DNA of 64,000 nt from Chrysomallon squamiferum (Eukaryota > Animalia > Mollusca). Of this stretch, positions 15,101-35,855 are shown piece by piece. Each line of letters starts with the position of its first letter. Position 1 is the stretch's first letter. The stretch lies in the NCBI GenBank assembly GCA_012295275.1, contig CM022676.1, positions 15,562,001 through 15,626,000 of the forward strand, read 5' to 3'. The translations under genes and the position numbers were made by a program. Under the pieces are notes generated by a model. It did not search any database and was not told the DNA's origin. It was given only the letters and a program-made list of their open reading frames with translations.

Positions 15101-17825
15101 TCATTCCCAAATCCTGTTTATGACTACAGTTTTTGTTACCCCAGTCATAGAAAGAACAGTGATTCACTCCATATTCATCTTTAACACAGTTAACATCATC
15201 AACCCACACTGGTCCTGTTCCTTCTCCAAAGTCAGCATTCTTATACGTCTTTGCGTTGAATCTAGGATTTATAAAACTGAGTTGTCTGAACATTGTTAGT
15301 AGATATATTATTCAAGTTTTGCTACGGGGTAATTTCAAACACAAACCTTAAATTCCAATTTTAATTTACTTTGTATGGCGAAGATACCAAAGTTAAGATA
15401 TTTTATAAATTAATCAGTTTAATTCAGGTAAAACATTCTTACTGACTGAATCCTAAAAGTGTACAGATAAAGCCTGCCTCTTTGTCGTCAAATTTGTCAC
15501 CGCAGACAGTTCCCCATGTATCGTTAAGTTTGATCTCAACTCGACCCTGTGTTGAAATACCTCCACCATTGACTAGCCTGATAGACACTGAAATTAAGTA
15601 CAAAATATTTGAATCGAGTGTTTACAAAATGGCAGGAAATATTATATATACACATCACAGGATTCTTTCAATATTTTGCTGGCACGTAGTAATAGCGATT
15701 TATTTTAAAATCCTAATTATAATAATAAATGTATCATAGCTTGCATTTGTTCTTTTCGTATTAGGCTCTTTATTTCAAAGCTTCACAATAAGTTAATGTA
15801 TGGGAAAAAAACCTGTACGCTGTGATTGCGGGGATTATAAGAAATATTTTGGTCTAAATTTATACTAATTTCGAATACTGTTTTGTCAATAATATTAACG
15901 ATGATGTATTAGCAACAATAATAATTAAAAAGACAAACAAACAGCAACAGCGAACAACAACAATGAACAACGAAAAAGAAAATCAAGACATTTTTGATTC
16001 AAGATGTTAAAGAAAGTAGAAATTATGAGACTATGAACAATATTATTATTATCATTATTTTTTTTTTAAATTAAGACATATAGGTAAAAGTAATTTTCTT
16101 GATAGAAAAATATAAAGAATGGTTGAACATTACATTGTAGGACAAATAAATTGTTATTAACTAAACATGGACATTTTTTTTAAGGTTAGGGTTATGTTTC
16201 ATTTCATTCAAATTCTATCCTCTATTACAATGAAAAAACACAACAAACATTAGATATCTGTGTAGCAAACCTTGACAGCGTATCCCAACATCTCTTCTGT
16301 GACTACAGTAATTGTTTCTCCAACCAGAAAATCTACACTGTTCCACAGATCTTTCATTTCCTTTACACTGAAGATTATATAACCATATTGGGCCAGAACC
16401 TTCTCCAAAGTATGGTGTGTTACCAGAAATGACCTCAGCTGCCTTACTGAGATATATAGCAAAAGAAAAGAAGGACACAAATGATAAACAACTAATAATT
16501 TATATAACATAACAAAGTTAACTGGTCTAATAAAATGAGTTATCACATGAGAACAATGAATGGCGAGCACTATTTTATTCAGTTATCGATTGAACTATTA
16601 CTTGTTTTAAGTCAAACGAATGAATAAGGAAGTTTGTATTCCTGGCTCTCGGAACGTCAGTATATACATTTTTTTATTTTTTATTTTTTTATTTTTTTAT
16701 TTTTTGTTCAGTTTCAGATCGCCTGAAGCAGGCTTGTAAACGACGTAGTAGTCTCACAATGATCACTAGATCGAAACATGAAAATGTAATGTCATGTTCG
16801 TAACTGTGAAAAAAAAAAAAAAAAAAAAAAAAAAAAAATCTTTAAACGATCTTTTACTTGAATAAAAAGTATTTTCCAATATATTATACACAAACTTTAT
16901 AAAGTAACAGATAATAAACTGCTTCTGTTTGTACTAGTATATCTGGATATATCAAAGAGAGGTGAATGTTTGATAATTGTGTTGTTCAAAGAGTAGTATT
17001 TACATTAAAAAGTCATTTTCTGTAACTAACACGTAAGTTGACAGGATAATATATATTACTTGGTATTATTTTATTATTATTATTATTATTATTATTATTA
17101 TTATTAGTAGTAGTAGTAGTAGTAGTAGTAGTCGTAGTAGTAGTAGTAGTAATAGTAGTAGTAGTATTAGTAGTAGTATTGTAGTAGTAGTAGTAGTTAA
17201 AATACGTCGGTAAAACCGTATATCACGAAAGATCTACTTTTACCTATTAAATCCCATCATTGAACAGAGAACACCCGCATCTTTTCTGTCAAAATATCTC
17301 ATTCTACAAATTGTTCCCCACGTCCCGTTTATTTGAATCTCAACTCGACCTTGTGTTGGTATTCCTCTTCCATTCACTAAACGTACTGGTACTTAAATAA
17401 TAACATGTTTATATATGATCAGCGAATTAGAATACTATAATTTGTTTAGAAAGGAAAAAAGTATACAACAAACACATTTTTGTTTTTCTATTTTAGGTAT
17501 GTTACATGACAAATTATTCGGTAATAAAAGAAAAATTACGTAAGATGTCGCTAAATCTCTAGCATTGTTATAGCTATCAGTAACCAGTATTTTCCACATC
17601 AGTTTGATGTTAATCACAGTTATTTCAATAAATATATACTTACTAAACAATAATATTAAGAAGAAGAGAAAGAAAAAGAAGAAGAGAACGAAGAAGAAGA
17701 GGAAGAAGGAAAAGGAAAATAATAACAAACGTGTAATATTAGTTTAAATTTATCTTACCAGTACTTGAGTGCACGATGAAAATATTTATATAAGAAAAAC
17801 AGAAAATACAAATGTCTATCCGCAT
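23..17825 (-). CDS. Multi-SRCR (scavenger receptor cysteine-rich, group A; DMBT1/neurotrypsin-like) gene, 3' end outside window; two internal frameshifts
   Basis: Leader exon plus 16 exons forming 8 SRCR domains (VRLVNG..GRVEI..WGT.C / FG.G.GP.W...C.G.E..C...C.H..D.G..C), 6 Cys per domain, each split by a phase-2 intron and bounded by phase-1 introns; all GT-AG. Confidence 0.93.
374..518 (-). CDS. SRCR domain 8 exon A (type S)
   Basis: [47 protein letters not shown]; 145 nt. Confidence 0.92.
1690..1865 (-). CDS. SRCR domain 7 exon B
   Basis: [58 protein letters not shown]; 176 nt. Confidence 0.92.
2419..2563 (-). CDS. SRCR domain 7 exon A (type P)
   Basis: [47 protein letters not shown]; 145 nt. 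Confidence 0.92.
3551..3726 (-). CDS. SRCR domain 6 exon B
   Basis: [58 protein letters not shown]; 176 nt. Confidence 0.92.
3809..3926. repeat. (TA)n microsatellite
   Basis: Direct observation. Confidence 0.97.
5688..5832 (-). CDS. SRCR domain 6 exon A (type V)
   Basis: [47 protein letters not shown]; 145 nt. Confidence 0.92.
6537..6655. repeat. (AG)n microsatellite
   Basis: Direct observation; the paralogous intron carries an expanded AG/AC tract at 14365-14752. Confidence 0.97.
6917..7093 (-). CDS. SRCR domain 5 exon B, +1 frameshift in T9 run (6961-6969)
   Basis: 177 nt versus 176; reads FYDWSKKKL* as given, and one base fewer restores [18 protein letters not shown]. Confidence 0.85.
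7292..7436 (-). CDS. SRCR domain 5 exon A (type S)
   Basis: [47 protein letters not shown]; 145 nt. Confidence 0.9.
8129..8294 (-). pseudogene. SRCR domain 4 exon B with 10-nt frameshifting deletion
   Basis: 166 nt versus 176 nt in paralogous exons; homologous frame [48 protein letters not shown] is out of phase with the acceptor, which reads to TAA. Confidence 0.85.
8952..9090 (-). CDS. SRCR domain 4 exon A (type P, in-frame shortened)
   Basis: [45 protein letters not shown]; 139 nt. Confidence 0.88.
10306..10481 (-). CDS. SRCR domain 3 exon B
   Basis: [58 protein letters not shown]; 176 nt. Confidence 0.92.
10488..10625. repeat. (AAT)n microsatellite abutting a splice acceptor
   Basis: Direct observation. 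Confidence 0.97.
11690..12120 (+). mobile_element. Decayed LINE reverse-transcriptase fragment in SRCR intron
   Basis: Conceptual translation [41 protein letters not shown] matches the non-LTR RT QxGFR..ST.DHIF..DFEKAFD motifs; stops and frameshifts. Confidence 0.85.
13571..13715 (-). CDS. SRCR domain 3 exon A (type V)
   Basis: [47 protein letters not shown]; 145 nt. Confidence 0.92.
14365..14752. repeat. Compound (AG)n/(AC)n tract
   Basis: Direct observation. Confidence 0.97.
15086..15261 (-). CDS. SRCR domain 2 exon B
   Basis: [58 protein letters not shown]; 176 nt. Confidence 0.92.
15443..15587 (-). CDS. SRCR domain 2 exon A (type S)
   Basis: [47 protein letters not shown]; 145 nt. Confidence 0.92.
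16271..16446 (-). CDS. SRCR domain 1 exon B
   Basis: [58 protein letters not shown]; 176 nt. Confidence 0.92.
17244..17391 (-). CDS. SRCR domain 1 exon A (type P)
   Basis: [48 protein letters not shown]; 148 nt, phase 1 to 2. Confidence 0.9.
17759..17825 (-). CDS. SRCR gene leader (signal peptide) exon [22 protein letters not shown]
   Basis: ATG at 17825, 67 nt to G|GTAAG phase-1 donor, acceptor TTCAG at 17850; joins in frame to VPVRLVNG. Confidence 0.8.
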
Positions 17826-18070
17826 GTCTGAATGATTCTAGTGGAATATCTGAAATAATAATAACAAGAACAAGAACAAAAACAACAACAATAATAATAA
17901 TAATAACTAGAATAATAATAATTATAATAACAATAACAATGTGAATATCAATAATAATATCAAACATCAAGTCGTAATAATAACTACCAAATAAACGTAG
18001 TAAGAAAAACAAGATAACGAACTACTTGAAAGCGAACTTCTTGAATTGTCTTCCCTGTCTGCAATGATGT

Positions 18071-18205
18071 CTTCTTCCTCTTAGAGCAGCCAGTGAAATT
18101 TCTACAAAGCTTTCCTAGAACAAGGAAGTGGGTCTAATGACGTTTCTCAACAACCTGCATTGTTTTAGAAAGGAAACAGCTGTAAAGTACTTACTATTGT
18201 TCATG
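18071..18205. promoter_or_regulatory. Conserved non-coding block upstream of SRCR leader (homologous to 35717-35855)
   Basis: Visible alignment with 35717-35855; shared GGAA cores (CTTCCT, AGGAAGT, AGGAAA); TTCCTAGAA (GAS-like) at 18112-18120 in this copy only. Function inferred. Confidence 0.55.
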
Positions 18206-35397: not shown

Positions 35398-35716
35398 GTT
35401 TGAATTATTCCAGTGGGAAATCTGAAATTACAACAATAATAATTGTAATACTAATAGTAATAATAATAATAATACTAATAATACTACTAATAATAATAAT
35501 AATAATACTGATGATAATAATAATAATAGTACTAATAATGGTAGTAATATTAATAATAATAACTATAACAACAACAACAATAATAATAATAATATCAACA
35601 TCAGTAGAAATACAAATAACAATAACTATAAAAGCGATTCAGTCAGAAAAAGAAATTATGAATTATTTAAAAACTAACTGGTGAAATATTCTTCTTTATT
35701 TAGTCTACAGTTTTTT

Positions 35717-35855
35717 CTTCTTCCTGATAGAGCAGCCAATGAAATTTTTGCAAAACTTAACTAGAAGAAGGAAGTCAGTCTACTTATGTATTTCAACAAG
35801 CTGCATTGTTTTGTAAAGGAAACAGGTTATAAAGTACTTGTTATTGTTCGTGTGA
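35717..35855. promoter_or_regulatory. Conserved non-coding block upstream of receptor leader (homologous to 18071-18205)
   Basis: Alignment by eye, e.g. TAGAGCAGCCA.TGAAATTT and CTGCATTGTTTT..AAAGGAAACAG in both copies. Confidence 0.55.

Follow-up and report, generated by a model that had tools for sequence, protein, structure and literature searches.

On the minus strand of the window (the whole 64-kb stretch of DNA analysed here), two neighbouring receptor-type genes are headed by homologous 5' segments of about 0.5 kb. We consider it probable, judging from the DNA sequence, that this 0.5-kb module was duplicated at the DNA level with breakpoints in the first intron, and that the 67-nt open reading frame (ORF) within it is the predicted signal-peptide exon of both genes. 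A sequence-only reading of the same DNA had proposed that a portable promoter/leader cassette, which would co-regulate the genes, was grafted onto different recognition modules, and what we can uphold of this is a bounded homologous 5' segment of ~0.5 kb lying before structurally unrelated domain exons. The downstream domains are indeed unrelated, as that reading had it, being SRCR in one gene (gene A) and V-like Ig/FN3 in the other (gene B).

Positions 17738-18205 (copy A) and 35310-35852 (copy B), both on the minus strand, are homologous, with 80-82% identity in two blocks. Blastn within the window aligns the leader region (17738-17856 with 35310-35428) without gaps at 82.4% identity over 119 nt (E 4e-30) and the upstream block (18057-18205 with 35703-35852) at 80% over 150 columns (E 1e-33). 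These alignments confirm both the common leader and the upstream homology that had been reported; the upstream block is present in both copies but is slightly longer than the ~135 bp first claimed for it. In a self-blast of the window, the entire segment (17703-18205 versus 35275-35852) is recovered with an E-value of 2e-53. Each copy comprises a 67-nt ATG-initiated hydrophobic ORF, a GTAAG donor, a TTTCAG 24 nt upstream of the ATG, an AAT-rich tract and the 150-bp block, the equal leader lengths, the donors and the acceptors having already been described. The two copies lie on the same strand, 17.5 kb apart, and an nhmmer --max profile search found no others in the 64-kb window, the next-best matches having E-values of 0.11 (leader profile) and 4.1 (block profile). 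A 33-nt pattern from the donor region, allowing up to three mismatches, matched copy B itself and nothing else.

The leader coding exons (17759..17825 in copy A, 35331..35397 in copy B) each comprise 67 nt, that is, 22 codons plus one nucleotide, end in phase 1 and are likely to encode signal peptides. Their translations, as originally given for 17825-17759 (-) and 35397-35331 (-), were reproduced, with leader B reading MQTDIFIFCIFPISFLILHSST. Each is preceded by a 24-nt 5' UTR piece and an acceptor-like AG (17826..17851 with the AG at 17851-17850 in copy A; 35398..35423 with the AG at 35423-35422 in copy B), and in copy A a TAG lies in frame upstream of the ATG. The UTR pieces are identical at 19/24 nt and the acceptors at 7/7 nt, and the GTAAG donors with the first 21 nt of the intron (17738..17758 and 35310..35330) at 18/21, after which copy B runs into a (TTC)n tract at 35277-35303. 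No indels separate the two leaders, and ATG, GTAAG and TTTCAG are retained in both.

Several features link the leaders to the domain exons that follow them. Both leader donors and both following acceptors (17391 and 34488) are in phase 1, and the orientation of leader and domain exon is the same in the two genes, with the first phase-compatible domain exon about 357-367 bp away in gene A and 842 bp away in gene B. When the DNA upstream of each gene's first domain exon was scanned for an ATG-started, hydrophobic exon with a phase-1 donor, the leader was the best of two candidates in gene A and the only candidate in gene B. In simulations, 20-24% of leaders retained the ATG, the open frame and the GT after 13 random substitutions, and 8-16% also retained the hydrophobic core. 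Identity across the leader region is nearly equal in its coding, UTR and intron parts (79-86%) and 10 of the 12 codons that differ between A and B are changed non-synonymously, so constraint on the peptide would appear to be weak or absent. Weak sequence constraint is usual for signal peptides. The 67-nt ORF is predicted to serve both genes as their signal-peptide exon. Splicing of each leader to its first domain exon would complete the split codon as Val in gene A and as Gly in gene B, and the resulting peptide would supply the signal peptide required both by a type I membrane protein and by an SRCR ectodomain. The strong conservation of the donor region also led us to consider spliced-leader trans-splicing; we rejected it, since each leader carries an ATG and sits in cis, with a phase-matched exon downstream on its own strand.

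The upstream block (18057..18205 in copy A, 35703..35852 in copy B) is a candidate promoter or 5' UTR exon that may carry regulatory sequence. Three GGAA cores are conserved in it in both copies, in line with the earlier description; a promoter reading of individual motifs (ETS/GGAA, SOX-like ACAATG, CCAAT-like) is not counted as evidence here. Between block and leader lie spacers containing the AAT-rich tract (ATT on the minus strand), a candidate intron 1 at 17856..18056 in copy A and its counterpart at 35429..35702 in copy B, which differ in length and align weakly. Inspection of the A/B alignment by eye revealed no conserved GT donor between the block and the AAT tract, and this leaves the acceptor 24 nt before the ATG with no identified partner exon. 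An Rfam search of 17000-36500 at E <= 1 returned eight matches, all far under the gathering score and none in either cassette. Matches of the mir-297-like type in this search fall on simple TG/CA-type repeats.

The body of gene A (3..17391, minus strand) encodes eight SRCR domains of two exons each, arranged in tandem units of ~3 domains, and runs off the window past its first base. Its first SRCR half-domain exon (17244..17391) is entered through a phase-1 acceptor; 6 nt beyond this lies another AG that is also in phase. All eight SRCR exon ORFs tested match PF00530, seven of them above the Pfam gathering score of 26.1 bits and the eighth, which is frameshifted, at 22.5 bits. The gene was mapped by tblastn, and its SRCR units are 72-90% identical to one another in the window self-blast. 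The frameshift lies at an A9 run (about 6960-6970) in the second half-exon of SRCR5, where the tblastn match is split, and the remaining 15 SRCR half-exons in the map are all open. Either gene A is a pseudogene or the A9 run is an assembly error; both are possible.

Gene B begins with a V-like Ig exon (34141..34488, minus strand; 348 nt, phase 1-1), followed by three further Ig-like exons identified by tblastn (33898-33509, 31778-31356 and 31082-30711, spanning 30711..33898), an FN3 exon (28669 to about 28300; PF00041, E 7e-11, 42.6 bits against a cut-off of 25) and a transmembrane exon (27585-27232) in which a hydrophobic stretch is followed by RRLK. Since it encodes FN3 and a transmembrane segment followed by RRLK, gene B needs a signal peptide. 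The Ig-like exons, the first included, form two tandem pairs (30663-32151 versus 33438-34877, 75% over 1519 columns), and the 3' half of the gene is paralogous to a third gene. In the self-blast, 23506-28802 aligns to 58529-62461 in colinear pieces of 70-81%. None of the four Ig-like exons matches a Pfam family. The AF2 model of the first (pLDDT 76.3, pTM 0.70) nevertheless matches 500 or more PDB chains in Foldseek (E <= 0.001), the best matches being antibody V domains (VH/nanobody) with TMq 0.63-0.75, and its atlas neighbours include V-set clusters; it thus models as a V-set Ig fold, a beta-sandwich like that of solved V domains. Of the domain names used in the sequence-only reading, SRCR (PF00530) and FN3 (PF00041) therefore stand as given, whilst the 'Ig' exons have no Pfam match and the first models as V-set. 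A relic V-like Ig exon was also detected by tblastn upstream of cassette B, at 41073-40780.

Searches of representative proteins with HMMER returned nine matches, the best of which, for the Ig exons, was Gigantopelta aegis XP_041373878.1 at 46% identity. This closest annotated relative of the gene B Ig exons opens with a signal peptide that has no evident similarity to the leader. Word-index protein searches with an Ig exon and the FN3 exon as queries gave nothing at E <= 0.001, and no annotated Chrysomallon squamiferum protein was found in any of these protein searches. With a gastropod protein as the nearest relative, the cephalopod tissues (haemocytes, white body) that had been put forward for expression tests have no basis.

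What distinguishes the shared segment from the surrounding DNA is the abruptness of its edges. Homology between A and B stops 21 nt past the donor at a (TTC)n tract in both copies, and its other limit is the upstream edge of the block. In gene A the A/B alignment places a (TTC)n-type microsatellite (17650..17728) at the junction of the cassette and the SRCR-unit intron: across it, the intron ceases to match the cassette and, in the self-blast, matches instead the introns that precede SRCR4 and SRCR7. Duplications of equal or greater divergence within the window (the 75%, 70-81% and 72-90% alignments described above) still align through their introns, so the loss of A/B homology outside the cassette points to a breakpoint rather than to decay. 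Phase-1 compatibility and the sharp end of homology 21 nt into the intron likewise argue that a module, not a whole gene, was duplicated. We propose that a 5' module of ~0.5 kb was copied at the DNA level with breakpoints in the first intron, which would constitute exon shuffling. The (TTC)n tracts that border both copies on their downstream side may have helped the recombination.

These same edges bear on the possibility that the whole gene was duplicated in tandem and that the domain exons of one copy were then replaced or differentially lost, leaving the cassette as the sole surviving common part. Such a history would suit two copies that share a strand at a distance of 17.5 kb, in a locus where tandem duplications abound, as well as the relic V-like Ig exon upstream of cassette B, and a route through an intermediate with both domain types has been proposed for the Kunitz genes of the WFDC locus (PMC3209443). 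It would, however, have to explain why no A/B homology is left in introns or flanks, when duplications of similar divergence retain it, and why in each copy homology ends no more than 21 nt past the donor; we regard it as unlikely. That gene A is dead, its decaying 5' module being functional only in gene B or another paralogue, seems to us very improbable: the frameshift in the second half-exon of SRCR5 would fit, but the other 15 half-exons are open, an indel in one homopolymer run is the kind of error that assemblies commonly contain, and leader A retains its ATG, frame and donor.

The segment might also be an interspersed repeat, or be built around one, with leader ORFs that are fortuitous or of which just one is used. 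Copy number was gauged from DNA contigs of five runs (X1, X2, X3, X5 and X7), in which contig depth is not a copy number. The centre of the leader is crossed by 2-3 distinct contigs in X2, X3, X5 and X7, and in X1 by as many as 13 at one site. The core of the upstream block (35772-35823) is multi-copy in these contigs, with 7-11 distinct contigs per run at 35813 and, in X3, a summed contig depth 20-30 times as high as for the contig of copy B itself; we put it at roughly 10-30 copies, with the same caveat on depth. A further short multi-copy stretch, 35879-35918, lies immediately upstream of block B. The block core is thus itself a low-copy repeat, which weakens the case for block and leader always travelling together, and the weak constraint on the leader peptide would also be expected of a fortuitous ORF. 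Against this, inverted matches at the cassette edges are confined to low-complexity sequence and none is common to both copies, so that neither terminal inverted repeats nor target-site duplications were found there; none of 18 intergenic ORFs nearby matched any Pfam family; the cassettes have no Rfam match; the leader centre lies on only 2-3 contigs in four of the five runs; and both copies are equally oriented, each before a phase-compatible first domain exon. The high-copy transposon that the sequence-only reading had named as an explanation that would undo it is therefore not favoured by these data for the leader, and we give little credence to a repeat origin for the segment as a whole.

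An additional leader-like type occurs in contigs of four of the five runs, without indels, with loose ends that retain the TTTCAG and the AAT tract and, on reading by hand, with no listed change that creates a stop. The summed depth over 35309-35353 is 3-4.5 times that of the leader centre, in part as an artefact of the 30-nt overlaps between unitigs. The leader-like sequence types concerned (C and C'), which lie outside the window, may be separate loci or haplotypes. In X2, X3, X5 and X7 the depths of all non-B contigs together come to roughly that of the B contig itself, so that divergent haplotypes or hemizygous copies would account for C and C', and we do not take them to prove a third locus.

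Should transcripts confirm the predicted splicing, duplication of the 5' module would provide a clean DNA-level case in which two receptors of unrelated fold are headed by one signal-peptide exon together with the non-coding DNA around it, with the breakpoints still visible and microsatellites at the edges. Published cases, to our knowledge, mostly draw on statistics of intron phase or involve small secreted peptides (such as venom and seminal proteins). Here the module heads large, multi-domain genes of receptor type, in a locus with several other module exchanges and relic exons, and the A/B pair would offer a concrete test of whether a common 5' module imposes common expression.

The 5'-module exon shuffling predicted here from sequence is not unprecedented, and can be compared with the REST/WFDC-semenogelin-Kunitz locus, the conotoxin toxi-drivers and the scorpion venom genes. 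In the mammalian REST/WFDC locus, neighbouring genes with products unrelated in sequence or fold have a common signal-peptide exon, as is predicted for A and B, and the explanation given is that the exon coding for the product was shuffled or replaced and the regulatory sequences retained (PMC3209443). In that locus, however, conservation extends to the last (3' UTR) exon, expression was measured in transcripts and tissues, and the products are secreted, whereas A and B have a common 5' module (the 3' end of gene A lying outside the window) and encode large multi-domain receptors.

Scorpion venom genes have a phase-1 intron after the signal peptide, and donation of promoter and signal sequence has been proposed for them (PMC5308243). 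The idea resembles that put forward for A and B, in that a module is donated to different folds via a phase-1 intron. The scorpion proposal is speculative, being founded on intron phase and promoter motifs, whereas in A and B the homology of the module can be seen directly in the nucleotides, as can its edges. More generally, phase-1 introns are in excess at signal-peptide cleavage sites (PMC1626468; Tordai and Patthy 2004 and Vibranovski et al. 2006, as cited in PMC5308243). Leaders A and B fit this pattern, ending in phase 1 22 codons after the ATG, but the excess is a statistical regularity and the A/B pair a specific duplicated module.

The toxi-drivers of cone snails are 5' UTR exons with adjacent intronic and upstream sequence that have been recombined onto unrelated coding exons (PMC13542836). 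In common with A and B, they are found in a mollusc, with phase-1 introns beside the signal-peptide region, which make the phases compatible, and repeats at the breakpoints. They differ in that mainly non-coding 5' UTR is common to them (PMC13542836), whereas the A/B module includes the predicted signal-peptide coding exon; in that transcriptomes tie them to venom-gland expression and transposable elements lie at their breakpoints, where A and B have microsatellites and no recognisable transposable element; and in that they head toxin genes, A and B heading receptor-type genes (SRCR, Ig/FN3). It is conceivable, if rather improbable, that A and B belong to a small family of 'driver' modules in this mollusc, repeatedly recombined via their edge microsatellites onto SRCR, V-like Ig/FN3 and, elsewhere in the genome, other recognition-domain arrays to yield receptors that are diverse in structure but co-expressed, in which case the family would, by analogy, be an immune-receptor counterpart of the conotoxin toxi-drivers.

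Two genes on the minus strand of the window, an SRCR-repeat gene (gene A) and a receptor-type gene with V-like Ig, FN3 and transmembrane parts (gene B), begin with a homologous leader and upstream segment, as the sequence-only reading had claimed. The leader ORFs (minus strand, 17825-17759 in A and 35397-35331 in B) are each 67 nt long, that of A translating as previously written and that of B giving MQTDIFIFCIFPISFLILHSST. GTAAG follows directly 3' of both and TTTCAG lies exactly 24 nt 5' of each ATG; the reported agreement in coding length, acceptor, donor and 24-nt UTR spacing was thus borne out by sequence comparison. 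Using blastn within the window, 17738-17856 aligned gap-free with 35310-35428 (82.4% over 119 nt, E 4e-30), the upstream block 18057-18205 with 35703-35852 (80% over 150 columns, E 1e-33) and the full segment 17703-18205 with 35275-35852 (E 2e-53). The spacer between block and leader is less conserved and contains an AAT-rich microsatellite whose tract length differs between the copies; no GT donor conserved in the A/B alignment was found in the stretch from block to AAT tract. A profile built from both copies (nhmmer --max) located this ~0.5-kb cassette at only two places in the 64 kb, the next-best matches having E values of 0.11 and 4.1.

What lies behind the two leaders is quite different. 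In gene A, PF00530 (SRCR) was matched by Pfam in 8/8 ORFs tested below 17400, and tblastn with the window's own half-domains traced eight SRCR domains of two exons each between 17401 and base 3, at which point the gene runs off the window; these are arranged as units of about three domains, in tandem copies with 72-90% nucleotide identity. In gene B, the leader is followed by four Ig-like exons, then by an FN3 exon (PF00041, 42.6 bits) and one that encodes a hydrophobic segment with RRLK after it. The four Ig-like exons, none with any Pfam match, form two tandem pairs (30663-32151 versus 33438-34877, 75% over 1519 columns). A structure model of the first, made from a 7-row alignment, has eight strands (mean pLDDT 76.3, pTM 0.70), and Foldseek matched it to at least 500 PDB chains at E <= 0.001, the best among the matches listed being antibody VH and nanobody domains (TMq 0.63-0.75); ESM Atlas neighbours of a gene B Ig-like exon were family-less mollusc clusters first and V-set clusters after. 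On the Pfam, model and Foldseek results, therefore, the names SRCR gene and Ig/FN3 receptor are both correct and the domain sets structurally unrelated.

Homology between A and B ends 21 nt past the donor (18/21 identical), and a (TTC)n tract comes next in both copies. Beyond this tract, from ~17650 as far as the exon, gene A shares homology with the introns that precede SRCR7 (2413-2873 aligning with 17238-17728) and SRCR4 (9535-9772 with 17385-17632), so that cassette changes to SRCR-unit intron across the microsatellite. At the upstream end (18205/35852), a (TA)n tract follows in A and unrelated sequence in B. Other duplications in the window, of equal or greater divergence, remain alignable through introns, so the loss of A/B homology outside the cassette reflects real breakpoints; judged from these alignments, the copied unit is a ~0.5-kb module and not a gene. 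Outside the cassette homology there is a 107-bp inverted repeat pair (18445-18551 and 51079-51185, 82% identity), one arm of which lies 240 bp upstream of block A.

An inverted-repeat search returned low-complexity pairs only, none common to both cassette copies, Pfam matched 0/18 intergenic ORFs and Rfam (E <= 1) gave no match inside either cassette, all of which goes against an RNA gene or a mobile element of any recognisable kind. The full cassette is present only twice in 64 kb, and the description of the downstream domains as structurally unrelated (SRCR in A, Ig-like plus FN3 in B) stands. The proposal of a portable promoter/leader cassette on different domain modules is supported in part, namely as a bounded ~0.5-kb segment heading unrelated domain exons.

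The leader coding exon ends in phase 1 in both genes. In gene A the next open exon starts at 17391 after TTTAAG, with a second in-phase AG 6 nt on, and gives two nucleotides to the split codon, which is therefore predicted to be Val; in gene B the next exon (348 nt, phase 1-1) starts at 34488 after CCTGTAG, the predicted splice giving Gly. Since both domain arrays start in phase 1, the graft would be frame-neutral. We scanned 2.1 kb (A) and 3 kb (B) upstream of the first domain exon for alternative leaders, taken as ATG-started hydrophobic ORFs with a phase-1 GT donor. The leader was the better of two candidates in gene A, the weaker (17599-17506, donor CAT/GTAACA) lying in intron sequence repeated before SRCR4 too, and the sole candidate in gene B.

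The two leaders differ at 13/69 positions (67 nt plus GT) and in 12 codons, with the residue altered in 10, mostly from hydrophobic to hydrophobic. Identity is similar across the CDS (54/67), UTR piece (19/24) and intron start (18/21), and the acceptor is identical at 7/7 nt. When 13 random substitutions were simulated, 20-24% of leaders retained an open frame together with the ATG and GT; the hydrophobic core survived as well in 8-16%. This is modest support for constraint on the leader, not proof.

Logan contigs from five of eleven sequencing runs of the source organism, none of them recorded as RNA, were placed on 35200-35950 (X1, X2, X3, X7) and 35306-35436 (X2, X3, X5, X7) at 80% likeness; their summed depth does not equal copy number. 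The leader centre is spanned by two contigs in X2, X3 and X5 and by three in X7. B's own contig was found in X2, X3, X5 and X7, an A-like contig in X3, a further leader type, C, in X1, X2, X5 and X7, and a variant, C', in X7, a partial contig in X3 being consistent with C'. Type C has 7 of A's differences from B plus its own letters at 35367, 35379, 35380 and 35381, and so is not copy A of the window. It has no indels and, with codons read by hand, no stop among its listed changes; its loose ends beyond 35410-35415 retain ATTTCAG and then AAT repeats. Summed depth of the non-B contigs is close to that of B's own in each of X2 (420.9 + 235.2 versus 757.5), X3 (14.6 + 23.1 versus 41.1), X5 (25.8 + 22.6 + 8.2 versus 52.9) and X7 (129.1 + 59 versus 165.3), so C and C' could represent divergent haplotypes or hemizygous copies rather than extra fixed loci.

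X1 has more contigs than the other runs, up to 13 at one site. Block position 35813 carries another letter in 8 (X1), 7 (X2), 11 (X3) and 7 (X7) distinct contigs, summed depth over 35772-35823 in X3 is ~30x the depth of B's own contig (828.7 versus 27.2) and some loose ends join the block core straight to ATT-rich sequence. Roughly, and with contig depth giving no copy number, the block's 50-80 bp core occurs at ~10-30 places and the full cassette at very few. Immediately 5' of block B, 35879-35918 (absent from copy A) is multi-copy in the contigs, several of which begin matching at 35879 and end at 35918-35921. Over 35309-35353 (the final 23 nt of leader B, the donor and 22 nt of intron) summed depth reaches 3-4.5x the value at the leader centre in each of X2, X3, X5 and X7, and several of the contigs show 0-2 differences; this is partly a unitig-overlap effect.

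The explanation we favour, and consider reasonably likely, is that a 5' module was duplicated at the DNA level and that its two copies now stand at the 5' end of two unrelated, same-strand genes separated by 17.5 kb. The module would comprise the block, which may be a promoter, a 5' UTR exon or a co-duplicated repeat, together with the AAT-rich tract, acceptor, 24-nt UTR piece, 67-nt predicted signal-peptide exon, donor and first 21 intron nt; at its downstream edge the (TTC)n tracts are candidate recombination sites. Had a whole gene been duplicated and its domain exons replaced afterwards, A/B homology might be expected beyond the cassette, where it is absent although similarly diverged duplications align through introns; we regard this as unlikely. 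That the segment is repeat-derived and the leader ORFs fortuitous would fit the multi-copy block core (~10-30 places) but not the lack of common inverted repeats and of Pfam or Rfam matches, and seems decidedly improbable. Gene A might also be dead, because the frame is shifted at a nine-A run (A9; ~6960-6970, minus strand) within the second half-exon of SRCR5, where the tblastn match is divided between frames -2 and -3; we give this little credence, the frameshift reflecting either true inactivation or an assembly error at the homopolymer.

The 3' half of gene B (23506-28802; FN3, TM and three more pieces) is colinear with 58529-62461 (minus strand, 70-81% nucleotide identity) in a third gene, C, in which a classical Ig exon (62909-62499; Ig_2, E 1e-8) is accompanied by an FN3 exon (62311-61940, minus strand) with 81% amino acid identity to that of gene B. 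Given this colinearity, gene B looks like a mosaic of cassette, V-like Ig pairs and C-type FN3-TM tail. Minus-strand FN3-exon fragments at 28812-28963 (a 5' piece just upstream of the gene B FN3 exon) and 60250-60366 (a middle piece downstream of that of gene C) are probably pseudo-exons from local duplications.

When the first Ig exon of gene B was searched with HMMER against 1.84 billion representatives, 9 proteins reached E <= 0.001; the top one, XP_041373878.1 of the gastropod Gigantopelta aegis (E 6e-26, 46% identity), shares both kinds of Ig-like domain and continues into an S/T-rich tail. Its signal peptide has no evident likeness to the gene B leader, which at such distance says little, and it lends no support to an ancient link of leader to Ig exons. 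The hits place the source organism among the molluscs, and the cephalopod tissues named in the sequence-only reading are a guess. Within the window, a truncated relic V-like Ig exon (40780-41073, minus strand), 74-78% identical in amino acids to the Ig-like exons B1 and B3 over 98 residues, is located 5 kb upstream of cassette B; the profile search of the window found no leader copy before it, and the exon may show how far 5' the Ig array once reached. Between the relic exon and cassette B, 39057-39791 (minus strand) is a minisatellite with a 30-nt period whose copies agree at 86-93%; its reading frame stays open over 225 codons, encoding an S/T-rich repeat (...SSEATVTSDMSNRVTVTSDT...), and it is a possible mucin-like stalk exon. 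Elsewhere, two small single-exon ORFs (51618-52034 and 54416-54793, minus strand) form a tandem pair (51519-52411 versus 54320-55199, 82% nucleotide identity), each with its own differing signal-like start (MKGVAF...LALAQ), KR sites and a tail rich in His at the C terminus; neither has a Pfam match.

The sharing of 5' parts by unrelated genes is of a kind already described. At the mammalian REST/WFDC-semenogelin-Kunitz locus, homologous signal-peptide and 3' exons are described as retained in genes with unrelated products (PMC3209443). In Conus, the account of 'toxi-drivers' has 5' UTR exons and adjacent intronic and upstream sequence recombined onto neuropeptide exons, aided by phase-1 introns beside the signal region (PMC13542836), and for scorpion venom genes donation of promoter and signal sequence via a common phase-1 intron has been proposed (PMC5308243). 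A non-exhaustive literature search found no molluscan SRCR or Ig/FN3 genes for which the like has been described. The locus would be a further case of known 5'-module sharing, its own features being that the recipients are large receptor-type genes, that the module includes a coding leader and that the breakpoints are visible in the DNA.
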